Source of the DNA: Candidatus Omnitrophota bacterium
Lineage (GTDB): Bacteria; Omnitrophota; Gorgyraeia; Gygaellales; Profunditerraquicolaceae
Assembly: GCA_028717885.1 (NCBI GenBank)
Contig: JAQUMX010000002.1
Coordinates: forward strand, 12,237 to 76,236
Direction: 5' to 3'
Length of the DNA: 64,000 nt
Of this stretch, positions 17,701 to 64,000 are shown one piece after another (position 1 is the stretch's first letter; every line of letters starts with the position of its first letter). The translations under genes were made by a program, and so were the position numbers. Below the pieces are notes generated by a model. That model was not told where the DNA came from, ran no database searches, and was given only the letters and a program-made list of their open reading frames with translations.

Positions 17701-17728
17701 TTGACTTGTAAAGGTATTCTGTTATCAT
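17701..17728 (+). promoter_or_regulatory. Sigma70-like promoter (TTGACT, 16-nt spacer, TGtTATCAT) heading the long glycan gene string
   Basis: TTGACT at 17701-17706 and TATCAT at 17723-17728 preceded by TGt. It lies in the only non-coding gap of 73 nt between rfbB and the MarR gene. Confidence 0.55.
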
Positions 17729-17730
17729 AT

Positions 17731-17745
17731 GTTCAAGGTTTGAAC
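17731..17745. promoter_or_regulatory. Palindrome GTTCAA-ggt-TTGAAC between the -10 box and the start codon; candidate MarR operator
   Basis: Read directly. The 6-bp arms sit at 17731-17736 and 17740-17745, 2 nt downstream of the -10 and 2 nt upstream of the ATG at 17748. Confidence 0.4.
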
Positions 17746-17747
17746 AA

Positions 17748-18095
17748 ATGAATAATTACAAAGAAGACATCCTGGATTCCGAGGAAACCCTTCAAATAAT
17801 CCGCAAAATTGAGTGTAACCCAAAAGTCACTCAGCGCGGCCTTTCTAAAGAGCTGGAAATCAGCCTCGGTAAGATCAACTTCCTAGTTAACTCTCTCATA
17901 GACAAAGGTATAATCGAAGCAAAAAATTTCAAAAATTCCAAGAATAAATTAGGCTATTTGTATTTAGTTACCCCTGAAGGGATTAGAACAAAAATCCGGC
18001 TAATGCAGAAATTTATCATTTGGAAGACTCAGGAGTACGAAAAACTAAAAACAGAAATTGAGAAGCTGAGGTCGGAGATTACCGTTGGGGATTAA
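17748..18095 (+). CDS. EPS-locus-associated MarR-family winged-helix transcriptional regulator
   Basis: 115 aa. VTQRGLSKELEISLGKINFLVNSLIDKGIIEAKNFKNSKNKLGYLYLVTPEGI matches my memory of the small MarR_EPS family found at the head of exopolysaccharide loci. Confidence 0.7.
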   Translation: MNNYKEDILDSEETLQIIRKIECNPKVTQRGLSKELEISLGKINFLVNSLIDKGIIEAKNFKNSKNKLGYLYLVTPEGIRTKIRLMQKFIIWKTQEYEKLKTEIEKLRSEITVGD

Positions 18096-19917
18096 AAGCA
18101 TGCTGAAGAAGCTCGCTAAGACACTTGTATGGACTGAGAAGAAGAGCCTGGTTATTTTAACCGCAGGCACTATCCTGCTTTCCTTGCTTGAAGTTTTTAG
18201 TATTGGAATTATCCTGCCTATCATGGGCCTGATTATTGCTCCGGAAAAAATTCATAGTAACAAGCTACTGATTCTTGTTAACAGGTGGATGGGGTCGCTG
18301 GATGACAGGTTTTTTCTTATATTGCTTATTCTCTCCGCGATTATTTTGTTTATTCTGAAATCAGCCTACTCTGTTTTTATCCTTAATCGGCAGCAAGCGA
18401 TTGTTGGGAAAATTTATACCCGCCTGACTAACCAGGCATTGGTTGCTTACCTGAAGAAGCCATATGCTTTTCATCTGCTGAATAATTCCAGCGTTCTCTT
18501 TAAGAATGTGATTGTCGAAATTAGTGATTTTGTTTTAGGTTTTCTTTCTTCGCTGGTAGTTATCGGCTCGGAAATGATTGTTTTTCTGGGGATTGCCTTG
18601 TTGCTGTTTTTTACTTATCCAGCCGCTACCTTCGCGTTAGTAGGCTTGTTTGGCCTGGTCACTTTATTTACCAACCAGGTTTTTAAAAATAGGATTAAGG
18701 CATATGCTTCCAGGCGCCAGAGTTCAAGTGAGCAGATCTATAAATCAGCCTTGGAGGCATTGAATGGGATTAAGGAAATTCAGGTTTATGATACCTGGAA
18801 TTTTTTTAGCCGGCGTTTTCAGAATTCCACAGAGCAATATGCTTCTAACTCGGTCAAATTTTATACCGTATCTGCTTTATCCCGTACAGCATTAGAAGTA
18901 TTCCTTTTTGTTTCCGTTTTTACTTTTTTATTGATAAACATTATTTTAAAAGCAGATTACTCGCAGATGATTCCTGCAATGACGTTAATTGCCGTGGCCT
19001 CGATCCGCCTGATACCTTCGTTCAATAAAATCAGCATTAACATGAATACTTTGCATTATTATGCCAATAGCCTCGATATGGTTTATAGGATTGTGTTGGA
19101 GAGTAATGCTGTGGACGGCCATCAGAAACTTAAAGAACAGGCTCCTTTCGTGCCTCAGGGAGAAGACGATACCATAAGGTTAAGCAATATTAAATTTTGC
19201 TATGATAGCGCCAATACCCCGATCTTTGAAAAACTCGATTTTTCTGTTGCCATCGGCCGCACAACTGCGTTATTCGGCGCTACCGGTGCGGGCAAGTCCA
19301 CACTTATAGATATTATTACGGGATTATTGATTCCGCAAGACGGGGTATTCTATTATAAGGGCAAGCTGATTAATGAAAATAATTTTAAAGAATATATAGC
19401 CAAGGTCGGTTATGTTCCGCAGCAGGTCTTCCTTTATGACGATACGCTTGAGGCGAATATTATCTTTGGTTCACAGGGAGGAAAACCCGACCGCCGTAAG
19501 CTGGAGAAAGTATTAAAAATCTCTCAGCTTGATTCTTTGGTAGAGGAGCTGCCGCTTGGATTAGAAACTTTGATTGGAGATAAAGGGGCCCGGCTATCCG
19601 GAGGGCAGCGGCAGAGGATCGGGATAGCGCGTGCTTTTTACAGAGATCCTGAAATAATTATTTTAGATGAAGCTACCGGTGCTTTAGATAGGCTTACAGA
19701 GAGCAAAATATTTAAGGCTATCTCTGAGATGCCTGATAAAAAGACGTTGATTATGATCACCCATCGGTTAAGTACTATCGAATACGCTGATTTAATCTTT
19801 GTGATGGAACGCGGGAAAATAATTGATCAGGGGGAATTTTTGGAACTATCAAGCCGTTCTCAGGCTTTTAAACGGATTATTGAAAAAAAACCGCTTGAGA
19901 CGGCAAAGGAAATATAA
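18085..19917 (+). CDS. Fused TMD-NBD ABC exporter (MsbA/PglK-like)
   Basis: About 605-610 aa. Six predicted TM helices, then Walker A GATGAGKST, signature LSGGQRQR and Walker B IIILDEAT. The start is either TTG 18085 (GGAG 7 nt upstream) or ATG 18100. Confidence 0.85.
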   Translation: MGIKSMLKKLAKTLVWTEKKSLVILTAGTILLSLLEVFSIGIILPIMGLIIAPEKIHSNKLLILVNRWMGSLDDRFFLILLILSAIILFILKSAYSVFILNRQQAIVGKIYTRLTNQALVAYLKKPYAFHLLNNSSVLFKNVIVEISDFVLGFLSSLVVIGSEMIVFLGIALLLFFTYPAATFALVGLFGLVTLFTNQVFKNRIKAYASRRQSSSEQIYKSALEALNGIKEIQVYDTWNFFSRRFQNSTEQYASNSVKFYTVSALSRTALEVFLFVSVFTFLLINIILKADYSQMIPAMTLIAVASIRLIPSFNKISINMNTLHYYANSLDMVYRIVLESNAVDGHQKLKEQAPFVPQGEDDTIRLSNIKFCYDSANTPIFEKLDFSVAIGRTTALFGATGAGKSTLIDIITGLLIPQDGVFYYKGKLINENNFKEYIAKVGYVPQQVFLYDDTLEANIIFGSQGGKPDRRKLEKVLKISQLDSLVEELPLGLETLIGDKGARLSGGQRQRIGIARAFYRDPEIIILDEATGALDRLTESKIFKAISEMPDKKTLIMITHRLSTIEYADLIFVMERGKIIDQGEFLELSSRSQAFKRIIEKKPLETAKEI

Positions 19918-19942
19918 AAAACCTAAAAACACAGGAGAAAAA

Positions 19943-20779
19943 ATGCCAGTATTCATTATTGCAGAACTCGGGATTAATCATAATGGTGATATCAATATTG
20001 CCAAGAAGCTTATTGATGGGGCAGTTTTTTCCGGGGCCGACGCCGTAAAGTTTCAGAAGCGGACCATAGATAAAGTTTATTCTAAAGCAGAACTGGATAA
20101 AACCAGGGAAAGCCCTTGGGGTAATACTACGCGTGAACAAAAATTCGGGCTTGAATTTTCTGAAGATGAGTATGATGAGATTGACCAGTATTGCCGTGAA
20201 AAAAAAATTCAGTGGTTTGCTTCCGCTTGGGATATAGACAGCCAGGTTTTTCTTAGAAAATATAATTTAAAATATAACAAAGTTTCCTCGGCCATGCTTA
20301 CGCACAGAGACCTTTTGGAAAAGGTCTCGGAAGAAAAAAAATATACTTTTATCTCTACGGGCATGAGCAACATGGAAGAAATAGAAAAGGCAATAAAAAT
20401 ATTTAAACAGAATAAATGCCCATTTGAATTGATGCATTGTAACAGTACTTATCCTATGCCTGACATTGAAGCAAACCTTAAACTCATCCCGTTTTTTAAA
20501 GAAAAATTTGGTTGTCAGGTTGGTTACAGCAGCCATGATGTCGGCTTAATTACGCCTTGTGCTGCGGTAGCTTTAGGAGCTACTTCAGTAGAAAAACATA
20601 TTACCCTTGACCGGGCAATGTATGGTTCTGACCAGGCAGCTTCAGTAGAGATTATGGGTTTTTATCGATTGGTAAATTATATCAGGACAATTGAAAAAGC
20701 CCTCGGAGACGGATTAAAGAGGGTTACTGCACAGGAAGAAATCATAAAACAGAAGTTAAGAAAGGTAAATACGCTCTAA
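19943..20779 (+). CDS. NeuB-family nonulosonic/ulosonic acid synthase lacking the C-terminal SAF domain
   Basis: 278 aa from the ATG at 19943 (AGGAGA ribosome-binding site). The listed 19823 start overlaps the ABC gene. FIIAELGINHNGD signature. It ends about 60-70 aa short of canonical NeuB. Confidence 0.75.
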   Translation: MPVFIIAELGINHNGDINIAKKLIDGAVFSGADAVKFQKRTIDKVYSKAELDKTRESPWGNTTREQKFGLEFSEDEYDEIDQYCREKKIQWFASAWDIDSQVFLRKYNLKYNKVSSAMLTHRDLLEKVSEEKKYTFISTGMSNMEEIEKAIKIFKQNKCPFELMHCNSTYPMPDIEANLKLIPFFKEKFGCQVGYSSHDVGLITPCAAVALGATSVEKHITLDRAMYGSDQAASVEIMGFYRLVNYIRTIEKALGDGLKRVTAQEEIIKQKLRKVNTL

Positions 20780-20781
20780 CA

Positions 20782-21540
20782 ATGAAGCCATTAGTATATT
20801 CATTGATTCCGGCGCGCGGAGGCTCAAAGGGGGTACCAGGAAAAAACTTGCGTTTGCTTGGGGGTTACCCTTTGATTGCTTATTCTATCGCAGCATCAAA
20901 ACTTACCACAGGCATCCAGCGGACTATTGTTTCTACCGATTCACAGGAGATCGCTTTGATTGCCAAGGAGTATGGTGCAGAAGTGCCATTTTTGCGCCCG
21001 GCTGAATATGCCCGGGATACTTCGCCTGACTTGGAGTTTGTACTACATGCCTTAAACTGGATGAAAAAAGAAGAACGCCGGGTGCCGGATTACTTCGTGC
21101 ACCTGCGCCCTACGACACCTTTCAGAGACCCGCAGGTGATCGTAAATGCAATCAATATGATCGTGCAGCATCCTGAGGCAACATCACTACGCTCAGCTCA
21201 TCCGGCCGCAGAGTCCCCTTACAAATGGTTTATCCGGGAAGGCGGTTATTTTAAAAGTATTCTTTCGCAATCATCGAACGATGAAGCGAATAAGCCCAGG
21301 CAGTGTTTTCCGGAAGTTTACATCCCGGACGGATATGCGGATGTGCTTAAGGTCGCTTTTATCGACAAGCAGCAGGAACTTCTGGGGGAAAGGATGCTTG
21401 GTTTTATTTCTCCGGTTTGCCATGAGGTTGATCAACCGGAAGACTTGGATATCCTGGAATGGCAGTTAAAACAGAAAACAATGCCGGTATATGAATTTTT
21501 GAAGCAAAGTTTTCCTCAGAAAGGAAAAAATGTCGGGTAA
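20782..21540 (+). CDS. Acylneuraminate cytidylyltransferase family (CMP-nonulosonate synthetase)
   Basis: 252 aa. LIPARGGSKGVPGKNL signature. Confidence 0.8.
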   Translation: MKPLVYSLIPARGGSKGVPGKNLRLLGGYPLIAYSIAASKLTTGIQRTIVSTDSQEIALIAKEYGAEVPFLRPAEYARDTSPDLEFVLHALNWMKKEERRVPDYFVHLRPTTPFRDPQVIVNAINMIVQHPEATSLRSAHPAAESPYKWFIREGGYFKSILSQSSNDEANKPRQCFPEVYIPDGYADVLKVAFIDKQQELLGERMLGFISPVCHEVDQPEDLDILEWQLKQKTMPVYEFLKQSFPQKGKNVG

Positions 21541-22915
21541 AAGTTTTAATGTATCACCCTCAAGGGTTGTTTCGCAGAGAACTAAATTTAGAAGGATTAT
21601 TACGAGTATTCCCGTCCCGCAAAGCTTAAGCACCTTGCGGCGCTTGGGCCGTTATGAAGCTAGGTCTATGCATGGGCAACTTCCGGTTCTTTGGCACAAA
21701 GCAAAAGATTTTCAGGTTTATGATAAATTCGGAAACTGCTGGATCGATTTTACTTCTACTATATTTGTCGCTAACACCGGCCATGCTAATCCGCGCGTGG
21801 TTTCTGCTTTAAAAAAACAGTTAGCGCAGGGATTGCTCCATACTTATACCTTTGCTAGTGAGATTCGGGCTAAATTCCTGGAAAAGTTAATTAAAAGCCT
21901 ACCGTCGTTCTGCCAAAAGGCATTTTTGCTTTCTTCAGGTACCGAGGCAACAGAATGTGCGATAAAACTAATGCGCATGTACGGAATCGGAGTCAATCCG
22001 GAAAAAAAGGTAATTATTTCTTTCAAAGGCAATATGCACGGCCGGACTATGGGCGCTGAAATGTTAAGAGGCGATCCGGTTTTGTCGGATTGGATCGGTT
22101 ATAAAGATCCTAATATGCAGGCGCTTAATTTTCCTTACCCTTGGCTGGCTGATAGCAGCCGGTATGATTGGGGTTTGAAATTCAAGAAGGATATGGACCT
22201 TCTGTTAAAGCATGGCTTAAAGCCTCAGAATATCTGCGGTTTTATCATAGAATCCTACCAGGGGTGGGGGGCGGTTTTTTATCCCAAAGATTATATTAAA
22301 GCCCTTTGTTCTTTTGCGAAAAAGAACCGTGCACTGGTTACTTTTGATGAAATACAGGGAGGATTCGGCAGGACGGGAAAACTTTTTGTTTTTCAACATT
22401 ACGGAGTAACGCCGGATCTTATTTGTTTGGGAAAAGGTATTAGCGGGTCATTGCCTCTTTCGGCAGTAGTAGGCAGAAAAAAGATCATGGATTTGCCTCA
22501 AATTGGCTCCATGAGCAGTACGCATTCTGCCAATCCTTTGTGTTGTGCGGCGGGGCTGGCTAATCTAGAAGCACTGTCAGAAAATGATTTAGTCCGGCAG
22601 TCACAAAGAAAAGGCAAGCTGCTTTCTGAAAGATTGCTGCAGCTTAAAGATAAATACCCGGAGAGAGTATTCTGGGTTTCTGTTAGGGGTTTGTTGGCTG
22701 CGCTTATACTTAAAGACCCGAAAACCGGAAAGCCTGATGCGGATTTTGCCAACAAGGTATGCGAGAAGGCGATGCAGAAGGGTTTATTGTTAGTGCATAC
22801 CGGCAGAGAATCGATTAAGATCGGCCCGCCTTTGACGATTCCCGATGCGGCTTTGCAGGAAGGCTTGGATGTATTAGAAGAATGTTTCGAAGAGGTTGAA
22901 AGGCAGGCAAGATAA
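21530..22915 (+). CDS. Class III (omega-type) PLP aminotransferase
   Basis: 461 aa. SGTEATECAIKLMR and FDEIQGGFGRTGKLF. Confidence 0.8.
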   Translation: MSGKSFNVSPSRVVSQRTKFRRIITSIPVPQSLSTLRRLGRYEARSMHGQLPVLWHKAKDFQVYDKFGNCWIDFTSTIFVANTGHANPRVVSALKKQLAQGLLHTYTFASEIRAKFLEKLIKSLPSFCQKAFLLSSGTEATECAIKLMRMYGIGVNPEKKVIISFKGNMHGRTMGAEMLRGDPVLSDWIGYKDPNMQALNFPYPWLADSSRYDWGLKFKKDMDLLLKHGLKPQNICGFIIESYQGWGAVFYPKDYIKALCSFAKKNRALVTFDEIQGGFGRTGKLFVFQHYGVTPDLICLGKGISGSLPLSAVVGRKKIMDLPQIGSMSSTHSANPLCCAAGLANLEALSENDLVRQSQRKGKLLSERLLQLKDKYPERVFWVSVRGLLAALILKDPKTGKPDADFANKVCEKAMQKGLLLVHTGRESIKIGPPLTIPDAALQEGLDVLEECFEEVERQAR

Positions 22916-23346
22916 TGCAGGGTATCAGGCATACCGGAATCGTCGTTAGGGACTTAAAACGAGAAGTTTATTTTTATCAGCGATTGTTGGGTTTGAAAAT
23001 TGCGCGGTCCAACGATGAGCAGCCGGATTATGTGAAGAAGATTTTGAATATACGCAATGGCAGACTAAAAACAATTAAACTGCAGGCTAAAGACGGTAAC
23101 CTTATTGAACTTTTGTATTTTTCAGGATACCGTAGAAGCGGCCGTAGGCATGCACTTTATTTGCCAGGTTACACACATGTTTCTTTTACGGTAAAAGATA
23201 TTGATAAGCAGTATGAAAGATTAAAAAAGGCAGGTATAAAATTTTTATCAAAACCACAGCTTGCTCCGCACGGGTATGCAAAATTAGCCTTCTGCTTTGA
23301 TTACGAAGGTAACGCCATAGAATTAGTCGAGGAATTATCGAAATGA
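22915..23346 (+). CDS. VOC/glyoxalase-family protein
   Basis: 143 aa. IRHTGIVVRDLKREVYFYQRLLGL, a typical VOC beta-alpha-beta-beta-beta start. TAATG coupling. Confidence 0.65.
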   Translation: MQGIRHTGIVVRDLKREVYFYQRLLGLKIARSNDEQPDYVKKILNIRNGRLKTIKLQAKDGNLIELLYFSGYRRSGRRHALYLPGYTHVSFTVKDIDKQYERLKKAGIKFLSKPQLAPHGYAKLAFCFDYEGNAIELVEELSK

Positions 23347-24038
23347 AAAACCGTGATTATCTTTCCGTGGTTTACGACAAAAAACGAACGCCTGTTTCGG
23401 ATTATCCGCAGCAATTAGCAGGGTATTTATCGAAGAGGTTTAACTTGAAGAAAGGGATGCAGTTTTTAGAAATCGGCTCTGGCAGAGGAGATTTCGTAAA
23501 AGAGTTCCAGCACTATGGAATGGTTTGCTCTGCGGTAGACCGCCAGGCCGGATTAAATTACCCCGGAGTAAAATTTTTTCCTTGTGATATCTTGAAAGAC
23601 AGGCTGCCGTTCGGCGATTCTACATTTGATGTGGTTTTTCATAAGTCTTTGGTTGAGCATTTATATGAACCGGATAACCTAATGAAAGAAACTTACCGTG
23701 TGTTGAAGAACTCAGGTAAGTTGATTATTTTGACTCCGGACTGGGAGAGTCAGATGAAGGTATTTTACGAAGATTTTACCCACTCTAGGCCTTACACGGT
23801 TTTGGCAATGAGCGACCTTCTGAAGGTATACAATTTTCGTGCGGTTACTGCGGAAAAATTCTATCAGCTTCCGCCATTCTGGAGGCACCGTTTTTTATTA
23901 ATCTTTGCTAAAGTCCTCCAACTGTTTTTTCCGGTTAAGGCTGCCAGATGGCTTACGGAAAAAACGGGATGGAAATTTTTCCGTTTTTCAGTAGAGTTAA
24001 TGATTCTTGGTTATGGAGAAAAAAATAGTGCAGACTAA
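23343..24038 (+). CDS. Class I SAM-dependent methyltransferase
   Basis: 231 aa. Motif I FLEIGSGRGDF and post-I/II FDVVFHKSLVEH. Confidence 0.75.
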   Translation: MKNRDYLSVVYDKKRTPVSDYPQQLAGYLSKRFNLKKGMQFLEIGSGRGDFVKEFQHYGMVCSAVDRQAGLNYPGVKFFPCDILKDRLPFGDSTFDVVFHKSLVEHLYEPDNLMKETYRVLKNSGKLIILTPDWESQMKVFYEDFTHSRPYTVLAMSDLLKVYNFRAVTAEKFYQLPPFWRHRFLLIFAKVLQLFFPVKAARWLTEKTGWKFFRFSVELMILGYGEKNSAD

Positions 24039-24834
24039 AACCTTTGCCGGATTGGCTAATGTGAATGTCGAACTTACCTCGCGTTGTAATAAAGACTGCT
24101 GGATGTGCGGCCGCAGGGAGAGAGACAAGCTCTATAAGGACATGGCTTATGGCGACATGGATTTCGCGCTGGTGGAGAAAATTGCTTCGGAGCTTCCACC
24201 GGGAATTGTAATCCAGTTACACAATAACGGTGAGCCGTTATTATACCCAAAATTTAAAGAGGTGGTTACATTATTTAAAAAAAGAAACTTTATTACCAAT
24301 ATCGTGACTAACGGAGAGTTGTTGGTAGAGAAATCACAGGAAATTATCGGCATTCTTGATACACTGTCAATTTCTGTTTTTGAAAATGACCGGCGTGCGG
24401 ATATGCAGTTGAAAATAATCAAGGAGTTTATTAAATTAAAAGGCGAAAACAGCCCTTTTACTACTTTAAGATTTGTTGGCAGGGTAGATGAAGCAAAATA
24501 CGCCGATATCAGAATATTAAAAATTAAGAGGCTGTTACATTCTCCTAAGGGGAGCTTCGATTATAAAAGGAAAGATCCGACTATTCCTGAGATCGGGATT
24601 TGCCTGGATTTTTTGAACCACCTGGCCATTGACAGGAACGGCGATGTATCGGTCTGTGTGCGTTTTGATCCAAATCGGGAATTGGTGCTAGGCAACGTAA
24701 GGAATGAAAGTTTACTTGATCTTTGGAATTGCCGCAAAAGGCAAAACATGCTTGCTTTGCATGTTGCAGGGCAAAGAAATAAAATTCCTTTTTGTAGTAA
24801 GTGCCATTTTTGGGGGGTACCTACCGGCGAATAG
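24013..24834 (+). CDS. Radical SAM protein with a Cys-rich SPASM/twitch-like C-terminus
   Basis: CNKDCWMC (codons 24085-24108). C-terminal GDVSVCV ... CSKCHFWG. ATG at 24013; the listed ORF starts at TTG 24007. Confidence 0.75.
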   Translation: MEKKIVQTKTFAGLANVNVELTSRCNKDCWMCGRRERDKLYKDMAYGDMDFALVEKIASELPPGIVIQLHNNGEPLLYPKFKEVVTLFKKRNFITNIVTNGELLVEKSQEIIGILDTLSISVFENDRRADMQLKIIKEFIKLKGENSPFTTLRFVGRVDEAKYADIRILKIKRLLHSPKGSFDYKRKDPTIPEIGICLDFLNHLAIDRNGDVSVCVRFDPNRELVLGNVRNESLLDLWNCRKRQNMLALHVAGQRNKIPFCSKCHFWGVPTGE

Positions 24835-24836
24835 AG

Positions 24837-26225: not shown

Positions 26226-26233
26226 GGGTTGCA

Positions 26234-27421: not shown

Positions 27422-27428
27422 GAATATA

Positions 27429-29314: not shown

Positions 29315-29321
29315 GAATTCA

Positions 29322-30821: not shown

Positions 30822-30832
30822 AGAGGGTAATC

Positions 30833-32720: not shown

Positions 32721-32721
32721 G

Positions 32722-33585: not shown

Positions 33586-33586
33586 A

Positions 33587-35585: not shown

Positions 35586-35599
35586 AAAGGGAAACCAAG

Positions 35600-36592: not shown

Positions 36593-36601
36593 AGGTAAAT
36601 T

Positions 36602-38077: not shown

Positions 38078-38082
38078 GAGGG

Positions 38083-40068: not shown

Positions 40069-40069
40069 G

Positions 40070-52259: not shown

Positions 52260-52260
52260 T

Positions 52261-56529: not shown

Positions 56530-57635
56530 AGTCGAAAAAACGCAGGAAATTTATTAGTATAGTTGGGGCTCGCCCAAATTTCATCAAAATAGCCCCCGTT
56601 CTAAAAAACCTTAAGGCGTATAAAGGGATAGATTCACTTTTGCTGCATACCGGCCAGCACTACGATAAAGAAATGTCAAAGATTTTTTTTGATGACCTAA
56701 AACTACCGAAACCTGATATTTACCTGGATGCTGGCGGGCGAGGCGGCAAAAACAAAGAAATAACAAAAATGATGAGTAGCCTGGAATGTGTACTGTCTCA
56801 GGAAAAACCTGACTTAGTAATTGTGGTTGGCGATGTGAATTCTACCGTTGCCGGGGCTATCGTTGCCAGTAGGCTTTCAATCCCTATCGCGCATATTGAG
56901 TCGGGATTAAGGAGCTTCGATCTTTCTATGCCGGAAGAGATTAACCGCATCGTTACGGATTCTCTTTCGAACCTGCTTTTTACGCCTTCAAGAGAAGCAA
57001 ACGAAAATTTATACCGCGAAGGTATCCGGCGCAACAAAGTTCATTATGTGGGCAACGTTATGATCGACACACTAACCAGCTTCAGGCGGCAGATTAATTC
57101 AAATACGCGCGCCCTTAGAGTGCTGGGTATTAACGAACGGCAATATGCAATGTTGACGTTACACCGGCCTTCAAACGTAGACAAACCCGAAGACTTAAGA
57201 AAGATCATAGAGGCGATTTCATTTATCCAAGATAAGGTAAAAATTATTTTTCCTGTCCATCCCAGGACTATGTCTTCTCTGGAAAAATTTAATTTTTCAA
57301 AGAGCCTTGCCAGGAAAAAAAATATCCGTTTGGTTCCTCCTATGGGATACCTTGATTTTTTAACGTTAATAAATAAGTCTTTATTCGTAATCACCGATTC
57401 CGGGGGAATCCAGGAAGAAACTACGATTTTAGGGGTTCCTTGCCTTACCGTGAGGAAAAATACAGAGCGCCCGGTTACGGTGGCTGAGGGGACAAATACT
57501 ATTGTGGGTACGGATCCCAAGGAAATTATTAAGGAGAGCCAGAAAATTCTCGAAGGTAAAGGAAAAGCCGGGCGGATCCCGGAATTATGGGATGGCAATG
57601 CGGCAAAGCGCATTGTTGAAATTTTAGTAAATTAA
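56526..57635 (+). CDS. wecB: UDP-N-acetylglucosamine 2-epimerase (non-hydrolysing type)
   Basis: 369 aa. VGARPNFIKIAPV, HTGQHYD and TDSGGIQEE. Confidence 0.85.
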   Translation: MKSKKRRKFISIVGARPNFIKIAPVLKNLKAYKGIDSLLLHTGQHYDKEMSKIFFDDLKLPKPDIYLDAGGRGGKNKEITKMMSSLECVLSQEKPDLVIVVGDVNSTVAGAIVASRLSIPIAHIESGLRSFDLSMPEEINRIVTDSLSNLLFTPSREANENLYREGIRRNKVHYVGNVMIDTLTSFRRQINSNTRALRVLGINERQYAMLTLHRPSNVDKPEDLRKIIEAISFIQDKVKIIFPVHPRTMSSLEKFNFSKSLARKKNIRLVPPMGYLDFLTLINKSLFVITDSGGIQEETTILGVPCLTVRKNTERPVTVAEGTNTIVGTDPKEIIKESQKILEGKGKAGRIPELWDGNAAKRIVEILVN

Positions 57636-57651
57636 TTAAAGGACACGGACG

Positions 57652-58608
57652 ATGAAAAATAAAAATATTTTAGTTACAGGCGGAGCTGGGGCTATCGGCG
57701 CCAACCTGGTGAATATTCTTTCTGCATCAAATAAAAATATTATCGTTATTGACGACCTCTCATCGGGGACGCCGGAGAATATTTTAAAAAACAAAAATGT
57801 CGTTTTGTATAAAGATTCAATACTAAATGACTTGCTGCTTAAGAGAATTTTTTTAAAAAGCAGGAATAAGATCGATATTGTTTTTCATCTTGCGGCGCTT
57901 TTTGCGAATCAAAATTCAGTAGAGCATCCCGAAAAAGACCTTTTAACCAACGCGCTAGGCACTTTAAAACTTTTGGACTTATCCACAAAATCGCGAGTTG
58001 AAAGGTTCGTTTATATTTCTTCTTCTTGTGTTTACGGCAGTGCCGGCGTGGATTTAAAGGAAGACCTTTCTTTCAGTCTCGAGACTCCTTATGCGATCTC
58101 TAAATTTTGCGGCGAGCAATATGCGCATTTTTATCACCATCTTTACGGCCTGAGAGCCGTGATTTTACGTTATTTTAATGCCTTCGGCCCAGGGGATCCT
58201 CCTGGCCGGTACAGGAATGTTATTCCAAACTTTATGCTTACCGCTTTGCAAGGCAAGCCGCTTAAGATTACCGGGACCGGAGACGAAACGCGTGATTTTA
58301 CATATATTGACGATATAATCAGGGGGACGATCCTGGCGGCAGAGGTAAAAAATGCTACAGGCCACATCTTTAATATCGGTTCCGGAAGAGAAATAAAAAT
58401 CAGGCACGTTGCGGAACTAATAAATTGCTTAAGCGGCAATAAAGCCGGAATTAAGTTTATTCCAAGGAGAAAATGGGACAAAATTACCAGGCGGGTGGCT
58501 AATATAGAAAAGTCCAGAAAAATCTTGGGCTATCGCCCTCAAATTAGCTTTGATGACGGGCTTAAGAAAACATACCGTTGGTTTAAAGAGAGGTATTGTA
58601 AAAAATGA
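57652..58608 (+). CDS. NAD-dependent NDP-sugar epimerase/dehydratase (extended SDR)
   Basis: 318 aa. ILVTGGAGAIGANL, SSSCVYG and YAISKFCGE. Confidence 0.8.
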   Translation: MKNKNILVTGGAGAIGANLVNILSASNKNIIVIDDLSSGTPENILKNKNVVLYKDSILNDLLLKRIFLKSRNKIDIVFHLAALFANQNSVEHPEKDLLTNALGTLKLLDLSTKSRVERFVYISSSCVYGSAGVDLKEDLSFSLETPYAISKFCGEQYAHFYHHLYGLRAVILRYFNAFGPGDPPGRYRNVIPNFMLTALQGKPLKITGTGDETRDFTYIDDIIRGTILAAEVKNATGHIFNIGSGREIKIRHVAELINCLSGNKAGIKFIPRRKWDKITRRVANIEKSRKILGYRPQISFDDGLKKTYRWFKERYCKK

Positions 58609-59399
58609 AGCATAATACCGAACTTAAACAGGACTGGGATGATGTCTGGAGCGATAAAACAGTGCCTTCCTGGGATTATTTATCACAGGTAATCCTAGGG
58701 CTTTTAAAAACCGAAATTGACGGCTTTGCGGCTAAAAGCTTTATCGAAGTAGGCAGCGGTTCAGGCAGGATTTCATTTAGGCTTGAGCGCTCCGGAGCCA
58801 CGGCGTATCTTTTGGACAAATCACGGCAAGCCTTAAGTTTCAGCAAGGAACATTTTTCCAGGACAAAAACACCCCATAAAGCAGTCTGTGCTTCGATATT
58901 CAACATGCCCTATCCCGATAATGCTTTCGATGTGGTTTGGAACGCCGGAGTCATCGAGCATTTTATCGGAAGAGAACAGGAAGATGCTTTAAAAGAAATG
59001 GTAAGAATTTGTAAGCGCGGGGGAATTATAATTACCTTAAATCCTTACGCAGGTTCCTTCTTGCATACTTTCGGAAAATGCATCATTGAAAAACTGACTC
59101 AATACCCTTTTGGCAGGGAGATCCCTATCGTTAGCCTAAAAGACTGCTGCCATGTTTTGAATTGCAAGCTAAAAAAAGATGAATACTCGGCCGGTTTTTT
59201 CGTTCTTGGTGTTGGTATGTTCAAAAGGTTGTCGTTGCTACCAATGGGGGGTGTTTTTAAACCACTGCTTTCAGTTTTAAACCGGGCATCTTGTAACCTG
59301 GATAATTCTTTTCTGGGAAACAAGATCAAGAAAACTGATTTGATGTTTTCCAAAGTTTTTGGCGGATATTTGCTGGTTTCGATACTTCAAAAGAATTAA
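58605..59399 (+). CDS. Class I SAM-dependent methyltransferase
   Basis: 264 aa. Motif I FIEVGSGSGRIS, and FDVVWNAGVIEHF. Confidence 0.75.
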   Translation: MKHNTELKQDWDDVWSDKTVPSWDYLSQVILGLLKTEIDGFAAKSFIEVGSGSGRISFRLERSGATAYLLDKSRQALSFSKEHFSRTKTPHKAVCASIFNMPYPDNAFDVVWNAGVIEHFIGREQEDALKEMVRICKRGGIIITLNPYAGSFLHTFGKCIIEKLTQYPFGREIPIVSLKDCCHVLNCKLKKDEYSAGFFVLGVGMFKRLSLLPMGGVFKPLLSVLNRASCNLDNSFLGNKIKKTDLMFSKVFGGYLLVSILQKN

Positions 59400-59419
59400 T
59401 TCATAAGAAGGGGAGGCAT

Positions 59420-60157
59420 ATGTTATTTATCTTATTGCCCGCTTTTAACGAAGAGGAAGGATTGGAAAAACTGCTTGATCGGATCGACAGGATAATCAAA
59501 GGGTTTTCGATACAATGTAAAATTATCATTGTAAACGACGGGAGCATGGACCGTACTCTTTATGTAATTGATTCTTATGCTAAGACATTGCCGATAGAGA
59601 TTATTAATTTTAAGAATAATCACGGGATTACCGAAGTTTTTCGTGTCGGCTTTAAAAGAGTCTGCGAAATAGGAAAAGATAATGATATCTGTATAACGAT
59701 GGATTCCGATAATACGCAGAACCCCTATGTCATCCTTGATATCATCGATAAAATCAATAATTCATCCGACGTAGTAATCGCCTCCCGTTTTCAAAAAGGT
59801 GGGAAGATGGTAGGTGCGCCTCTTTTACGAAAACTAATGAGCGTAGGAGTGGCAAAAATCCTGAAGCAGGTGGTTCCGATAAAAGGAGTCAGTGATTATT
59901 CCACTTTCTACCGGGGATACCGGGTGAAGGTTCTAAAACAGGCATTTAGTCATTACGGGGACAACTTAATAGAGGGCCAGGGTTTCTCCAGTATGGCGAA
60001 CTTATTGATCAAATTACGTAAAATTACGCAAAGGTTTGCTGAAGTACCGTTTATCTTGCGTTATGACCTCAAAGAAGGCGGTTCCGGCATAAGGGTTATT
60101 AAAACTATAAAAGGATACCTTAAGATAATCTCGGAAGTGCAAAAGGGTAAGCTATGA
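59420..60157 (+). CDS. GT2 polyprenol-phosphate glycosyltransferase (Dpm1/Ppm1/ArnC/GtrB-like)
   Basis: 245 aa. ILLPAFNEEEGL ... IIIVNDGSMDRT ... MDSDNTQNP. Confidence 0.7.
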   Translation: MLFILLPAFNEEEGLEKLLDRIDRIIKGFSIQCKIIIVNDGSMDRTLYVIDSYAKTLPIEIINFKNNHGITEVFRVGFKRVCEIGKDNDICITMDSDNTQNPYVILDIIDKINNSSDVVIASRFQKGGKMVGAPLLRKLMSVGVAKILKQVVPIKGVSDYSTFYRGYRVKVLKQAFSHYGDNLIEGQGFSSMANLLIKLRKITQRFAEVPFILRYDLKEGGSGIRVIKTIKGYLKIISEVQKGKL

Positions 60158-61713
60158 ACAGGAATTTTTTAAAAAAACAAGGCATTTTTCTGCTTTTTTT
60201 GTTTGCTTTGATTTGCCGTTTACCCGGTATAACCCGGCCGCTGATCATGGATGAAACCACGGCAGTAGCGGTTATCAAGCTGCCACTAGAGGGAATTATC
60301 AATGCCATGATTTACAATTCTCAGCCTCCGCTGTACTTCTATTTACTGAAACTATGGTCTCAAATCAGCAGCAGTGCCTGGTTTTTAAGGTTATTCGGCG
60401 TGTTGCTGGGAGCGGGAACTTGTATGCTAGTTTTACGTACGGCAAAAATAGCCTTTAATGAAAGGATTTCCCGAATAACGTTTCTGTTGGCAGCTTTATC
60501 TCCACAGCTTGTTTTTAATTCACAATACCTTCGGCCTTATTGCTTGGCTACATTTTTTACTGCCTGTTTAGTATTAATATTGCTGAAATTTATTAAAGAA
60601 GAAAAGGGGCAGGCGGCGTATTTTCTTTTGCTTACTTTAACTACTGCCGCTTGCTTTTATTCGTTTTACTTTTCTTTCCTGATTTTTGCGGCCCTCAACG
60701 CCTTTTGTGTAGTTTTTCTTGCCAGAAAAACAAGAAAATTACTTATCTGGCTGTTTTCACAGGCTACCGCGCTAACTTTATTTTCTTTCTGGTTCCCGGT
60801 TTTTTTGACACAGAAATACCTCATTGAAAATAATGTTACTTGTTATATTAAAAGCCTGAGCGATGCAAAGATGGGTTTTTACATGGGGAATTTCCATGTA
60901 GGCAATATCTTCAGGATTGTTTTGGCATATTTTAGCTTAGATGATATCCTTGGCAGCGCTTTAAGGTTTTCAAGCCATATACAGTATAAAGCGCTTTTTG
61001 TAACTTTGTCCTGCATTGCCCTTTTATTGCTTGCTGTGTACGTTTACAGGGCGATAAAGGCGATGTTTAAAGAGGAAAAAATCAAAAACATCTCATTTCT
61101 GCCGCTCTGCCTGATATTTTTTCCGGCAGGGCTCATGCTTATCTTTTCCATAGGTGCTGATTTGAAGCTCTGGCCGCAGAATGTGGTGAATATGCGTTAT
61201 TTTGGCCAAAGTTCCCTCTATTTCCTCATTATCGCGGCATTTTTCGTAACCGGATTTAAAAGAAAAACATTCAGAATTACGACCCTGGCAATGATAATAT
61301 TCTTGTTCTTTTTGGCTGACTTGCATATTTACCAGCATCCTTTTTATATCAATAATTCCGTAGTAAGCTATTTCCTGAAACACCAGAATAATGGCTGCAA
61401 GGTTATCATTGCTAGCCCAAGCACGGCGATGGGGTTTCTTCATCCGTTATCGGATAAACGGTTAGCGGACTATGAAATCCGTATTTATAGTGAAGACGAT
61501 AAACAGAACACTGCGGTCAAGGAAAGAATGAAGCACTTAGACAGGTTCTATTATTATTTCTTTAATTCTGCTGAAAATATCGTGCTTTATCCTGATTTAC
61601 AGGATAAATTCAATATTTTTGCCGGAAAACTTGGTTTTCAGCGGCAAGAGAATAGGCTTTTTTGCGATATTATTTCGGTTTCATATTACATAAAAAAACG
61701 GGGCATTGATTAA
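60154..61713 (+). CDS. GT-C membrane glycosyltransferase, GT39/GT83 (PMT/ArnT)-like
   Basis: 519 aa and polytopic. The first loop carries the D-E motif (PLIMDETTAV) typical of ArnT/PMT-type enzymes. ATGA coupling to the Dpm1-like gene. Confidence 0.6.
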   Translation: MNRNFLKKQGIFLLFLFALICRLPGITRPLIMDETTAVAVIKLPLEGIINAMIYNSQPPLYFYLLKLWSQISSSAWFLRLFGVLLGAGTCMLVLRTAKIAFNERISRITFLLAALSPQLVFNSQYLRPYCLATFFTACLVLILLKFIKEEKGQAAYFLLLTLTTAACFYSFYFSFLIFAALNAFCVVFLARKTRKLLIWLFSQATALTLFSFWFPVFLTQKYLIENNVTCYIKSLSDAKMGFYMGNFHVGNIFRIVLAYFSLDDILGSALRFSSHIQYKALFVTLSCIALLLLAVYVYRAIKAMFKEEKIKNISFLPLCLIFFPAGLMLIFSIGADLKLWPQNVVNMRYFGQSSLYFLIIAAFFVTGFKRKTFRITTLAMIIFLFFLADLHIYQHPFYINNSVVSYFLKHQNNGCKVIIASPSTAMGFLHPLSDKRLADYEIRIYSEDDKQNTAVKERMKHLDRFYYYFFNSAENIVLYPDLQDKFNIFAGKLGFQRQENRLFCDIISVSYYIKKRGID

Positions 61714-63152
61714 TGAAGGTATTTTTATTTTTATTAGCCGGGGCGCTTGCTGGTTTCTCGATAGCTATTTTACCGGCGGTTTCTTTAGTTCTCGGAGGTT
61801 GTATTGTCATTCTTCTCCTGATCCGTAATTATTTTCCTGCCGGTGGGAGAAAATTTATTCTTATTTTATTTTTATTCGGTTTCTCTTTGAGGGCATTATT
61901 TGCTACTTTTTATTATTTTGCCGCTCTGCATACAGCAAAAACCCAGACAACCTACGGCGTGGATTTTCAGCCTGATGCCGGTATTTATAATAATCACGCT
62001 TTATATCTAGCACATATTATCAACGGTATAGAGGTAAAGGATGAGATTCTGCGGGATAAACGGCTGGATCAGGATATGGAAGTAAGCTTTGCAGAATTTA
62101 AAGGGACTAACCCTCCTATGAGATGGTATCAATACGATGATTTCGTAAGGCTTATGGCAGCGTTTTATTCGTGGATAGGGTACTCGCCCATATCGGTCAA
62201 GTTACTAAATTGCCTTTTTGGTTGCTTAGCTGCGGTAGCGATTTATTTCTTTGCACTAAAGATCACTGAATCGGAATTCGTAGCCAAGGCGTCGGCTTTC
62301 TTAGTGATGTTTTTTCCAACTATGTTTCTTTGGTCGATTACGGGTTTAAAAGATGCCCCAACAACTTTATTATTCATTATTTTAATGTATGTGATTGTTT
62401 GGCTCGTCAGCTCAGAAGGCTCCCTAAAGAAACTTTGGCTGCTCCTGCTGGCCATGGCCCTTGCATATTTAATAGATATGATCCGCGAGAAATTTGCACC
62501 GGCTTTATTTTTTGGCATAGCCATAGCATTCATTTTCGGCATAATTAAATTCTGCAAAGAGCATAAGTTTTTTACCCGGCCAGTATTCGCCCTCACTTCT
62601 ATCTTATTGGCAACGGTTATAATATTATTCCTCTTAAGTAATCAGCATTTCCGCCACTTGATTAATTACAGTTTTTATAAGTTTTCTTCCAGGCAGATAG
62701 CTTCGGTAACAGATCTCTGCTCTGCTTCCGTTTATAAGATTTTTGACAATTGGGTTTATACAAAAGCATTCTTAAGGCCAAATGAATTAAGCGCACTATC
62801 TCTTCTGATAGCTTCGATTAAGGGATGGGTATATTTATTTTTAGTGCCTCTCCCTTGGCAGATAGACAGGGCCAGTTTTTTTGTTTTGCTCCCTCAACAG
62901 CTATTTTTTTATTTAAGCATCCCGTTTATCATCAGTGGAATTTGGCAGGCGTTAGTTAAGAATTTCTTTCCGGTTTTGACTATACTGGCAGTATTAGTGG
63001 TAATTATTACCCCTATAACCCTAACTGAAGGCGTAATCGGAATAGCGGTACGCCACAGGGATATGTTTACGCCTTTTTGGCTGGTCTTTGCCGCCTACGG
63101 ATTTTATTTTCATGCGATAAAGAATAGGATTAACGATAATGCAAAGCCTTAA
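61713..63152 (+). CDS. Polytopic membrane protein (GT-C-like or polymerase-like; family not recognised)
   Basis: 479 aa with 10 or more hydrophobic helices. TAATG coupling. Confidence 0.5.
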   Translation: MKVFLFLLAGALAGFSIAILPAVSLVLGGCIVILLLIRNYFPAGGRKFILILFLFGFSLRALFATFYYFAALHTAKTQTTYGVDFQPDAGIYNNHALYLAHIINGIEVKDEILRDKRLDQDMEVSFAEFKGTNPPMRWYQYDDFVRLMAAFYSWIGYSPISVKLLNCLFGCLAAVAIYFFALKITESEFVAKASAFLVMFFPTMFLWSITGLKDAPTTLLFIILMYVIVWLVSSEGSLKKLWLLLLAMALAYLIDMIREKFAPALFFGIAIAFIFGIIKFCKEHKFFTRPVFALTSILLATVIILFLLSNQHFRHLINYSFYKFSSRQIASVTDLCSASVYKIFDNWVYTKAFLRPNELSALSLLIASIKGWVYLFLVPLPWQIDRASFFVLLPQQLFFYLSIPFIISGIWQALVKNFFPVLTILAVLVVIITPITLTEGVIGIAVRHRDMFTPFWLVFAAYGFYFHAIKNRINDNAKP

Positions 63153-64000
63153 GCAGATTAATTTTTTAAGACAAAGAAAAACCCTAAAGATTTGTAAACA
63201 TATTATTGACGACCGAATCAGCGCTTTTAGAGTCAACAGAAAAAAAGTCGTCTTTAATCTTGGTTCAACCCACCAGGAACTATCTTTAGCGCAAAGCTGT
63301 TCCTATATCGAGACTGTCTTTGATGATTATTTGAAGTATGGCGGCATAAATCAAAATGACCTGGTTGGAATGAAGGTGTTGGAAATTGGGCCTGGAGATA
63401 ACCTGGGGGTAGCGCTTAACTTTCTGGCTGCAGGAGTTAAAAAGGTAGTCTGTTTGGATAGGATATATTCGAAGAGGAATACTGAACAGGAAAGATCAAC
63501 CTACCTTTATTTACGCGCTAAAATGGAACCTGTAAGCCGGCAACGATTTGATTCCGCAATAAAAATAGAAAATAATTCATTTTCTTGTAACCAAGAAAAG
63601 CTTAATTATTTTTATGGTATTGACGTAGCTCGGGCGGCGCAAGTCCTGGGGGAGGAAAAATTCGACCTGGTCGTTTCGCGTGCTGTGCTTGAACACATCT
63701 TTGAAATTGATAAAGCATTTGAAGTTATGGATAAATACCTGAAAGAGGGCGGTTTGCTTTTGCATAAAATTGATTTTAGGGACCATGAAATGTTTTCCCG
63801 CGATAAATTCCATCCTCTTGAATTCCTGACTATCCCAGAGTTTTTCTGGCGGCATATGACGCAGCACTCTGGGAAACCGAACAGAAGGCTGAAAAACTAT
63901 TATGAAGAGCGATTAAAGGCGCTGGGTTATGATTTTAAGATACTCATTACCCATTTAACAGGAAGACAGGAAGAATTTCTTCCTCCTAAAGAAAATATAG
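63139..64000 (+). CDS. Class I SAM-dependent methyltransferase, 3' end outside the window (absent from the ORF track)
   Basis: I translated from the ATG at 63139 and found no stop to nt 64000: MQSLKQINFL...MKVLEIGPGDNLGVALNFLAAGVKKVVCLD...FDLVVSRAVLEHI...GGLLLHKIDF. It carries methyltransferase motifs I and II/III and overlaps the upstream stop by 14 nt. Confidence 0.75.
   Translation, partial: MQSLKQINFLRQRKTLKICKHIIDDRISAFRVNRKKVVFNLGSTHQELSLAQSCSYIETVFDDYLKYGGINQNDLVGMKVLEIGPGDNLGVALNFLAAGVKKVVCLDRIYSKRNTEQERSTYLYLRAKMEPVSRQRFDSAIKIENNSFSCNQEKLNYFYGIDVARAAQVLGEEKFDLVVSRAVLEHIFEIDKAFEVMDKYLKEGGLLLHKIDFRDHEMFSRDKFHPLEFLTIPEFFWRHMTQHSGKPNRRLKNYYEERLKALGYDFKILITHLTGRQEEFLPPKENI

Follow-up and report, generated by a model that had tools for sequence, protein, structure and literature searches.

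A conserved promoter-palindrome cassette at the MarR_EPS gene of a long co-directional surface-glycan gene array in Candidatus Omnitrophota

Is a gene array that runs for tens of kilobases on one strand a single transcription unit, and is it controlled by the regulator gene near its start? The question is raised by a 64-kb stretch of a Candidatus Omnitrophota contig (hereafter the window), which holds the variable part of a biosynthesis region for a cell-surface glycan of the LPS, O-antigen, capsule or glycoprotein type. A preliminary description proposed that all genes from a MarR-type gene at 17748 to the window edge form one unit behind one promoter, gated or autoregulated by the MarR-family protein. 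The relevant features are given below as window positions, strand and identity.

14848-14880, +, intrinsic terminator following gap and marking the upstream limit of the glycan array (-20.9 kcal/mol; perfect stem of 14 bp)
14898-14925, +, candidate promoter P_rmlA, TTGATT-16-TGcTAAAAT, resembling class II marR promoters of relatives
14978-15844, +, rmlA-like glucose-1-phosphate nucleotidyltransferase (PF00483, 1.5e-72)
15837-16655, +, rmlD-like reductase (PF04321)
16628-17674, +, rmlB-like 4,6-dehydratase (PF16363, 1.1e-74)
17701-17728, +, promoter P_marR: -35 TTGACT, 16-nt spacer, extended -10 TGtTATCAT; same layout in relatives
17730-17746, no strand, candidate operator tGTTCAAggtTTGAACa; -10 box 2 nt before, ATG 2 nt after
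17748-18095, +, marR_EPS, 115-aa winged-HTH regulator with long C-terminal helix (TIGR04176)
18100-19917, +, PglK/MsbA-like ABC half-transporter, lipid-linked glycan flippase type (PF00664, PF00005; top NCBIfam matches PglK and MsbA, each under its cutoff)
19943-20779, +, NeuB-family nonulosonic-acid synthase-like enzyme (PF03102, 4.6e-69)
20782-21540, +, CMP-sugar cytidylyltransferase (PF02348)
21530-22915, +, class III aminotransferase (PF00202, 2.3e-89)
22915-23346, +, glyoxalase-fold protein (PF00903)
23343-24038, +, SAM methyltransferase (PF08241)
24013-24834, +, radical SAM/SPASM enzyme (PF13186, PF04055)
24837-26225, +, B12-binding radical SAM enzyme 1 (PF02310, PF04055)
26234-27421, +, 395-aa protein, no Pfam or NCBIfam match
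27429-28319, +, 296-aa protein, weak MptE-like match (PF01973, 7e-4, below cutoff)
28313-29314, +, GT10-like fucosyltransferase-type glycosyltransferase (PF00852)
29322-30821, +, B12-binding radical SAM enzyme 2
30833-31786, +, SDR epimerase/dehydratase (PF01370)
31779-32720, +, GT2 glycosyltransferase (PF00535)
32722-33585, +, GT11 glycosyltransferase (PF01531)
33587-35585, +, TPP-dependent E1 pair: alpha 33587-34534 (PF00676), beta 34527-35585 (PF02779, PF02780)
35600-36592, +, GDP-mannose 4,6-dehydratase-like SDR (PF16363, 8e-73)
36602-38077, +, B12-binding radical SAM enzyme 3
38083-40068, +, B12-binding radical SAM enzyme 4, KedN5-like C-methyltransferase type (NF033712, 4e-80, below cutoff)
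40070-41793, +, GHMP sugar kinase 40070-41053 (PF00288, PF08544), then nucleotidyltransferase 41053-41793 (PF00483)
41794-42993, +, DegT-type sugar aminotransferase (PF01041, 2.9e-97)
43013-43972, +, SDR epimerase
43973-45121, +, GT4 glycosyltransferase (PF00534, PF13439)
45118-46779, +, B12-binding radical SAM enzyme 5
46776-48502, +, split transketolase: N 46776-47567 (PF00456), C 47567-48502 (PF02779, PF02780)
48499-49212, +, GT2 glycosyltransferase
49190-50353, +, DUF4915/TIGR03032-like protein
50350-51279, +, sulfotransferase (PF13469)
51276-52259, +, SDR epimerase
52261-53766, +, B12-binding radical SAM enzyme 6
53756-56029, +, YfhO-like polytopic membrane protein, GT-C type (PF09586; about 12 hydrophobic segments by hydropathy)
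56014-56529, +, 171-aa protein, no Pfam or NCBIfam match
56526-57635, +, UDP-GlcNAc 2-epimerase (PF02350, 7e-110)
57652-58608, +, SDR epimerase
58605-59399, +, SAM methyltransferase
59420-60157, +, GT2 glycosyltransferase
60154-61713, +, PMT_2-type GT-C membrane glycosyltransferase (PF13231; 8 hydrophobic segments by hydropathy)
61713-63152, +, 479-aa polytopic membrane protein, no Pfam or NCBIfam match (about 13 hydrophobic segments by hydropathy)
63139-64000, +, SAM methyltransferase, truncated at the window edge

The layout agrees well with the preliminary description. Between 17748 and the window edge lie the 43 consecutive + strand ORFs that it counted, 39 of them with Pfam support, and a Pfam search of the eight longest minus-strand ORFs within this block gave no match. 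No gap above about 25 nt had been reported, and the widest junction measured in the window is 25 nt (19917 to 19943); the overlaps, put at roughly twenty with all example coordinates correct, occur as start/stop overlaps at 22 of the 42 junctions, and the gap is zero at two. The locus was expected to continue beyond the window, and inspection of the downstream sequence in identical contigs showed that the array reaches 55 genes and 60.0 kb, where a 61-nt gap is the first to exceed 25 nt, making 54 consecutive junctions of at most 25 nt across the window and the identical contig. The SAM methyltransferase cut at the window edge is 333 aa when whole and is present at full length in L001 and L046. 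The block had also been said to contain no hairpin-plus-T-run terminator, and our scan of its junctions (17.7-64 kb) found no credible intrinsic one, none being comparable to the gap terminator, whose hairpin and T-run rank first on the + strand across the whole window; terminator-like counts in consensus scans equalled the shuffled expectation. Judged by intergenic distances and terminators, the block thus counts as one predicted operon, which continues to 55 genes.

The first gene of the block was called an EPS-type MarR, and its full-model match to TIGR04176 (125.7 bits, cutoff 88) identifies it by sequence as a true MarR_EPS protein; the gene belongs to a Candidatus Omnitrophota MAG. It has no match to PF01047 in Pfam. 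The structure model (pLDDT 88) consists of a winged HTH and a helix at residues 76-114, and its nearest folds in Foldseek are Lrs14-like, PadR-like and MarR repressors. The homologues in this family number in the hundreds, many from Omnitrophota. Our literature search on the family turned up neither an experimental study nor a described operator, the only mention found being a passing remark on up-regulation in a transcriptome study (PMC10599003).

The palindrome noted beside the MarR start, GTTCAAggtTTGAAC, is present at 17731-17745 and is the sole GTTCA-N5-TGAAC in the window, where 0.01 would be expected by chance. We compared 40 marR_EPS loci spanning Omnitrophota, Desulfobacterota-type MAGs, Accumulibacter, SAR86 and Pelagibacteraceae, and at 38 of them the exact core lies at most 160 nt upstream of the marR_EPS start or overlaps it. 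The 658 kb examined contain 44 exact copies, every one at a marR_EPS or marR-type promoter cassette, including the only three (3/3) found beyond the start copies of those 38 loci. The 17-bp cross-locus consensus is tGTTCA-N5-TGAACa, with the flanking T in 33 of 42 and the flanking A in 37 of 42 extending the symmetry. A -35 box (TTGAC/T) and a -10 box are conserved across loci 0-31 nt upstream of the palindrome, which in class I promoters begins 0-2 nt past the -10 box. The proposed autoregulation is well in line with this cassette, kept at 38 of 40 marR_EPS loci with the appearance of an autoregulatory operator, and its conservation, together with the arrangement in the relative L007 described below, supports an autoregulatory operator that would drive polycistronic transcription; that MarR_EPS binds the palindrome is suggested by their co-occurrence only.

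Two other readings of the palindrome are a hairpin formed in the marR leader RNA and a target for some different DNA-binding protein. The palindrome can fold into a 6-bp hairpin, but across phyla 38 of 40 loci keep the 5+5 core bases unchanged and the 5-nt spacer varies freely, a pattern of base-specific protein recognition rather than compensatory RNA pairing, and the class I spacing places the left arm at or before the transcription start. The site also moves together with the marR_EPS gene in unrelated phyla, and we regard both readings as very improbable. Much harder to set aside is the idea that the unit really begins at P_rmlA, just past the gap terminator, with P_marR as a secondary, internal promoter, giving two inputs and a unit three genes and 2.8 kb longer than first proposed. 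P_rmlA has the same TTGAY-16-TGn-TAnnAT design and an intergenic position, and a single GTTCAA half-site comes after it at 14930. The genes behind it, rmlA-rmlD-rmlB (14978-17674), are glycan genes, so the array start at 17701 is not clean, and because no terminator was found in the rmlB-marR interval, read-through from rmlADB into marR is expected. In most relatives marR lies ahead of rmlADB, in at least eight directly before it and behind a promoter closely resembling P_rmlA; as marR does not keep one place with respect to rmlADB, the operon head is not fixed at 17701. On the other side, the read-through is something that we infer, and P_rmlA, having no full operator, would be outside MarR_EPS control. 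On balance, we lean slightly towards P_rmlA as the head. The claim of one unit behind one promoter stands as a predicted operon, but its "one promoter" is doubtful. Likewise, the sigma70-type promoter at 17701-17728 exists, but to call it the only recognisable one was too strong: the strict pattern derived from relatives matches the + strand of the 64 kb only at 14898 and 17701 and, poorly and within a gene, at 26772, and generic hexamer pairs scoring at least as high as P_marR occur inside the block at chance frequency. P_marR is probably not the sole promoter but a regulated one that acts internally or as a booster, and further promoters within coding sequence are possible.

Such promoters, placed inside upstream coding sequences, would be needed if the array were a mosaic of many ordinary operons, with P_marR driving only marR and a few downstream genes, and with the shared strand reflecting replication-strand bias and genome compaction. 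The entire window is indeed co-directional (61 of 61 genes on the + strand, including priA, fmt and gap) with positive GC skew throughout, and unrelated upstream genes overlap too (MGDG synthase and priA, by 38 nt), so that a shared strand and close spacing argue only weakly for a single transcript. Hexamer pairs with 10-11 of 12 consensus positions lie inside the block at 33005, 37210, 51537, 60805 (11/12) and 61964, and modules of the block recur separately in relatives (NeuB-CMP transferase-aminotransferase-glyoxalase-SPASM; the TK_N/TK_C pair). However, internal promoter-like sites are no commoner than in shuffled sequence, none of the internal pairs fits the extended -10 type of the lineage well, and the 54 junctions in a row of at most 25 nt contrast with the recognisable boundaries of transcription units in the window, where the gaps measure 73-151 nt and a promoter or terminator is present. 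One relative, L007, bears on the question in another way. Its marR starts 2 nt past the stop codon of a GT2 gene, and the full promoter-palindrome cassette lies 6.7 kb upstream with six tightly packed genes between, the only sensible reading being that these genes are co-transcribed; the operator there would act across at least six genes. We therefore consider a mosaic rather doubtful. Among the relatives from Omnitrophota, marR is preceded by a gap of 70-240 nt and followed within 30 nt by the start of the next gene, and every gene out to the end of the 10-kb flanks is co-directional.

The explanation that we prefer, and think likely with the above limits included, combines P_marR, the operator, autoregulation and a long polycistronic mRNA. 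A MarR_EPS dimer (a winged HTH with one long C-terminal helix) would bind the palindrome, whose half-sites would lie one helical turn apart. As the palindrome spans the predicted transcription start, binding is proposed to block RNA polymerase, which would amount to negative autoregulation, relievable by some signal. Transcription would then proceed across marR and on into the genes after it, giving long polycistronic mRNA, and unbroken translational coupling would leave no untranslated RNA where Rho could load. The promoter, operator and autoregulation are the part we hold with most confidence; it is probable that large parts of the array are transcribed as long polycistronic units, and a single 46-60 kb transcript from P_marR alone is unlikely.

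The MarR_EPS protein lies in a polysaccharide locus, as its family name implies. Like the classical MarR autorepressors (E. coli MarR at marO, SlyA, MepR, FabT), it would be a winged-HTH dimer at a short palindrome over its own -10/+1 region, and its core fold is similar to theirs (Foldseek 3vod, 6jbx, 1lj9). Unlike them, it has only 115 aa, and its model lacks an N-terminal dimerisation helix and carries a single long helix at the C-terminus, an architecture closer to PadR-like and Lrs14-like (AbfR2) regulators (TM 0.66-0.69). Long co-directional polysaccharide operons that require processive antitermination include those with RfaH/ops-JUMPStart (enterobacterial O-antigen and capsule), UpxY (Bacteroides capsule) and EAR (Bacillus subtilis eps). 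In the present array, as in those operons, sugar-nucleotide, glycosyltransferase, flippase and polymerase genes stand on a single strand after a regulated promoter region at the 5' end, but the array is far longer (at least 55 genes, 60 kb), and searches for ops in the marR leader, for Rfam elements and for a NusG paralogue among the Pfam results of the window revealed neither an element nor a factor for processive antitermination. One SAR86 relative has an ops-like GCGGTAGC beside its marR start. A survey of Omnitrophota (bioRxiv 10.64898/2026.06.07.730766) describes population-variable surface-polysaccharide cassettes, including a 25-kb example, as well as variable loci rich in glycosyltransferases; its passages on operons, strands, polysaccharides and glycosyltransferases contain nothing on a cassette regulator, operator or operon structure. 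The present locus resembles the hypervariable cassettes in those passages, as gene content 3' of marR differs among relatives and the upstream priA-fmt-galT-gap backbone is conserved. We conclude that this large hypervariable surface-glycan cluster is of a known kind, while its conserved operator, the tGTTCA-N5-TGAACa site, appears to be undescribed before and newly defined here.

The preliminary description of this locus had proposed a 43-gene, ~46-kb super-operon of glycan genes on a single strand, headed by one promoter and one EPS-type MarR, and the layout that it gave was borne out by a six-frame ORF map. Every long ORF of the 64-kb window lies on the + strand, and 43 successive genes run from marR to the window edge, where the last is cut at 64000. 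Pfam families matched 39 of the 43, leaving four proteins without any family match. Of the minus-strand ORFs inside the block, the eight longest matched no family and were rejected as genes for this reason. With start codons picked from position and Shine-Dalgarno context, all 42 junctions are 25 nt or shorter, the widest (19917 to 19943) being 25 nt, in agreement with the claimed limit; 22 junctions overlap and two more have zero gap, close to the roughly twenty overlaps reported, and all 12 junction coordinates given as examples were correct. The features needed below are as follows.

1-17674, + strand: 18 genes, namely a Wzy_C ligase, two GT9 heptosyltransferases, ManC, DegT, GT2, SDR, a HAD phosphatase, MGDG synthase, PriA, Fmt, two GalT-like proteins, GAPDH (gap) and RmlADB
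14848-14880: terminator of gap, -20.9 kcal/mol
14898-14925, + strand: P_rmlA, candidate promoter
14978-17674, + strand: rmlA-rmlD-rmlB
17701-17728, + strand: P_marR, TTGACT, 16-nt spacer, TGtTATCAT
17731-17745: palindrome GTTCAAggtTTGAAC, putative operator, preceded by "at" and followed by "aa" and the marR ATG, and so 2 nt from both the -10 box and the ATG
17748-18095, + strand: marR_EPS, 115 aa
24013-24834, + strand: SPASM radical SAM gene
24837-53766, + strand: range of six B12-binding radical SAM genes
33587-35585, + strand: TPP-dependent E1 alpha/beta pair, split
46776-48502, + strand: TPP-dependent transketolase N/C pair, split

Generic sigma70 and terminator consensus scans gave counts equal to the shuffled expectation, and the terminator scan overlooked the very strong hairpin and T-run of gap, so that its negatives are insufficient alone. 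Because these scans were uninformative, an RNAfold-based terminator scan and a lineage-specific promoter pattern were built. In the RNAfold-based scan the gap terminator ranked first in the whole window, and no comparable intergenic hairpin with a T-run was detected between 17.7 and 64 kb, as had been stated before, this criterion covering terminators of the intrinsic type; among intragenic hairpins, even the best (47214-47253 and 38333-38374) suffer from poor T tails or large loops. Judged on strand, junction length and lack of a terminator, which are the usual criteria of computation, the block is a single predicted operon.

As the preliminary description had also claimed, the locus continues past 64000, and the + strand array runs on in contigs identical to the source of the window. 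Contigs of GCA_028706935.1 and of Logan assemblies share sequence with the window at an identity of 100% or close to it, and a Candidatus Omnitrophota MAG has an annotated protein identical to the MarR of the window. The extension rests on three of these contigs (L001, L002 and L046), breaks off within a WecA-like gene at window-equivalent 78.3 kb, and was read from L046 (JAQTVE010000012.1) to its end via a look-up of one downstream protein. It adds, all on the + strand, two GT1 glycosyltransferases; an AsnB-type amidotransferase followed by a gene of unknown family; two methyltransferases followed by a Wzx-type flippase; a GT1-DUF218 protein followed by a DUF4330 protein; and a second unknown gene, an epimerase and a GT4 glycosyltransferase. 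The first gap longer than 25 nt after marR is one of 61 nt (L046 16340-16430, window-equivalent about 77.75-77.77 kb), and each of the 12 further junctions up to it is 24 nt or shorter, so that the array comprises at least the 55 genes and 60.0 kb from marR to this gap. As a rough comparison, the upstream part of the window has 17 junctions, just 12 of which are as short. The gap holds a promoter-like TTGCAC-17-TGcTAAAAT, the extended -10 box of which matches that of P_rmlA, and the gene behind it, cut by the contig end, encodes a WecA-type (Glycos_transf_4) initiating transferase. The predicted unit may end at this gap, or the gap may be where the next promoter lies.

The context of marR is a surface-glycan locus, with rmlADB on one side and at least 54 glycan genes on the other. 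The block encodes a PglK/MsbA-like ABC exporter; a module of nonulosonic-acid type with NeuB, CMP transferase, aminotransferase, glyoxalase-fold protein, methyltransferase and the SPASM enzyme; GT10-like, GT11, GT4 and three GT2 glycosyltransferases; and two membrane enzymes of GT-C type, one YfhO-like and one PMT_2. Sugar-nucleotide enzymes comprise five SDR epimerases/dehydratases, a DegT aminotransferase, a GHMP kinase with nucleotidyltransferase and a UDP-GlcNAc 2-epimerase, and a sulfotransferase and three SAM methyltransferases are available for modification. The two split TPP-dependent pairs may make branched or two-carbon-extended sugars, and the presence of six B12-binding radical SAM genes and one SPASM gene in a single glycan locus hints at sugars that are heavily C-methylated or altered by other radical chemistry. 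The six are not recent tandem duplicates, a reading that was rejected at a mutual identity of just 26-27%.

Parts of this gene content recur in contigs of relatives that carry marR_EPS loci. The transketolase N/C pair was also found in L007, L012 and L021, and B12 radical SAM genes lie downstream of marR in L008, L009, L021 and L023 as well. A module after marR, consisting of NeuB, CMP transferase, class III aminotransferase, glyoxalase-fold protein, methyltransferase, SPASM and B12 radical SAM enzymes, is kept in three Omnitrophota genomes (window 19943-26225, L010 11994-17300 and L023 10407-17500), its gene order differing slightly between them.

The TIGR04176 (MarR_EPS) model matches the window MarR at 125.7 bits against an NCBIfam cutoff of 88, over model positions 3-104 of 105; the sole Pfam match is PF13412 (HTH_24), PF01047 being present in some homologues. 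In canonical MarR proteins (PF01047), N- and C-terminal helices form the dimer interface around the winged HTH. The AlphaFold model of MarR_EPS (pLDDT 88) has a winged HTH followed by a single long helix, residues 76-114, and the N-terminal helix pair is absent. Its Foldseek neighbours are the Lrs14-like AbfR2 and PadR-like regulators (TM 0.66-0.69), while MarR-type repressors align at TM 0.5-0.6. Because of the model fold and these neighbours, MarR_EPS is assigned as a minimal MarR-like winged-HTH protein, and we infer from the model that it would dimerise through its C-terminal helix.

The 64 kb contain a single copy of the palindrome GTTCA-N5-TGAAC, where 0.01 copies would be expected. We compared 40 marR_EPS loci including the window (658 kb), gathered via homologue contigs and a scan of one genome per species, from sources including Omnitrophota, Desulfobacterota-type and Syntrophaceae MAGs, Accumulibacter, SAR86 and Pelagibacteraceae; in the relatives, marR_EPS stands in the same glycan-locus context as in the window. 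In 38 of the 40 loci an exact copy either overlaps the marR_EPS ATG or stands no more than 160 nt upstream of the start. The set contains just three other exact copies, and all 44 copies are at marR-type cassettes. The flanks of the core prolong the symmetry (T in 33 and A in 37 of 42 unique sites), giving the consensus tGTTCA-N5-TGAACa, in which the 5-nt spacer is free to vary. In nearly all loci a -35 box (TTGAC/T) and a -10 box that often carries TGn stand upstream of the palindrome, which begins 0-2 nt past the -10 box in a class I layout (window, L007, L010, L012, L013, L016, L017, L019 and L023) and about 10-30 nt further downstream in a class II layout. The invariant half-sites, the free spacer and the position at or over the transcription start favour an operator recognised by a protein over an RNA hairpin. 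Autoregulation by the MarR protein, which had been proposed from the window alone, is well supported by this comparison, as the putative operator is conserved at the regulator's own promoter and travels with the gene. Searchable literature on TIGR04176 or 'EPS-associated MarR' yielded no functional study or operator, and the cross-phylum putative operator seems to be new.

In one relative the cassette is distant from its gene: marR of L007 begins 2 nt past a GT2 stop, with no room for a promoter, and the palindrome lies 6.7 kb upstream, in a 117-nt gap after rmlB. The cassette there is complete (TTGACT-16-TATGAT-at-GTTCAAtgaATGAAC-aaATG); after it come a Shine-Dalgarno sequence and a nucleotidyltransferase gene that starts with GTG. 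Between the cassette and marR lie six tightly packed genes, and an autoregulatory loop in L007 would therefore need co-transcription across them. Another relative, L021, has about four marR_EPS-like starts in 9 kb (5270-5340, 9930-10000, 11000-11080 and 14040-14100). Two of the three extra palindromes follow promoter cassettes before additional, apparently degenerate marR-like starts in this contig, and two full-length marR copies stand behind a different repeat (…ccatcgacccatagtttttctATG) without the palindrome.

The claim that the only recognisable promoter lies at 17701 was too strong. A strict promoter pattern derived from relatives gave three matches in total on the + strand of the window: one at 17701, a poor intragenic one at 26772, and one at 14898, an intergenic promoter of the same design as P_marR, before rmlA-rmlD-rmlB. 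These glycan genes lie between the gap terminator and marR, and there is no terminator ahead of marR. At least eight Omnitrophota have the order gap, terminator, promoter-operator, marR, rmlADB and variable genes, whereas rmlADB precedes marR in the window, L012, L019 and L007. Because the order of marR and rmlADB differs in this way, 17701 would be a movable internal cassette, and the array would more naturally start at 14978. Generic promoter-like hexamer pairs, the best of them with 11 of 12 matches at 60805, are as frequent in the block as in shuffled sequence, and at this chance level they carry no weight for or against internal starts.

Shared strand and compaction are themselves insufficient for co-transcription, because they are true of the whole window, priA, fmt, galT and gap included: the MGDG synthase and priA genes overlap by 38 nt, and GC skew is positive from end to end of the window. 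A single promoter with a single 46-kb transcript is probably too simple a picture. It is also unlikely, in our estimation, that everything from marR to the 61-nt gap is one mRNA under a single MarR_EPS operator, without an antitermination factor and protected by coupling only; if this were true, a 55-gene, 60.0-kb mRNA would be among the largest bacterial operons by gene count, and tGTTCA-N5-TGAACa would be a cross-phylum master switch for hypervariable surface-glycan cassettes.

Some smaller observations concern the upstream part. A lone GTTCAA half-site at 14930-14935, in the spacer after P_rmlA (14926-14977), lacks the right arm and resembles a marR operator that has decayed, which fits an ancestral order gap-promoter-operator-marR-rmlADB, seen in most relatives. 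Between fmt and gap stand two tandem GalT/HIT-like paralogues (11676-13700, 46% identical), and the order priA-fmt-galT-galT-gap is kept in many Omnitrophota relatives (L008, L009, L018, L020 and L024). The ATG of gap at 13807 has a strong AAGGAGG Shine-Dalgarno sequence, with an alternative ATG upstream at 13747; the NCBI call on the identical contig (gap, 339 aa) starts at 13807, with which the galT2-gap spacer is 106 nt, not 46 nt.

Omnitrophota are uncultured and very small, and their surface is probably central to host attachment and phage defence. At least 60 kb of this locus are given over to an elaborately modified glycan. A 17-bp putative operator, common to an uncharacterised regulator family across several phyla, offers a testable handle on cassette switching and a sequence tag for finding regulated heads of glycan loci in metagenomes. 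It also provides a defined system in which to study how very long operons escape premature termination.

The locus is of an already known type, a surface-polysaccharide cluster that is large and variable and whose variable part is headed by a MarR-type regulator. A recent survey describes variable polysaccharide cassettes in Omnitrophota chromosomes (bioRxiv 10.64898/2026.06.07.730766), and term searches of this preprint returned no regulator or operon structure for them. RfaH/ops (JUMPStart) polysaccharide operons feature ops (GGCGGTAG...) in the 5' leader, but no ops element was found in the marR leader (17674-17748), and the two intragenic copies of the core (36985 and 52007) are at chance level. 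UpxY/LoaP-type loci feature a NusG/KOW paralogue at their head, whereas such a domain is absent from all 61 window proteins; no Rfam element matched in a scan of the window. Since no ops, Rfam leader element or NusG paralogue was found, very long transcripts, if any, would rely on translational coupling alone. In the SAR86 contig L028 (9888-9985), two operators stand in tandem, and after them an ops-like GCGGTAGC directly precedes the marR ATG; this marR-headed glycan operon of a gammaproteobacterium may also use RfaH-type antitermination.
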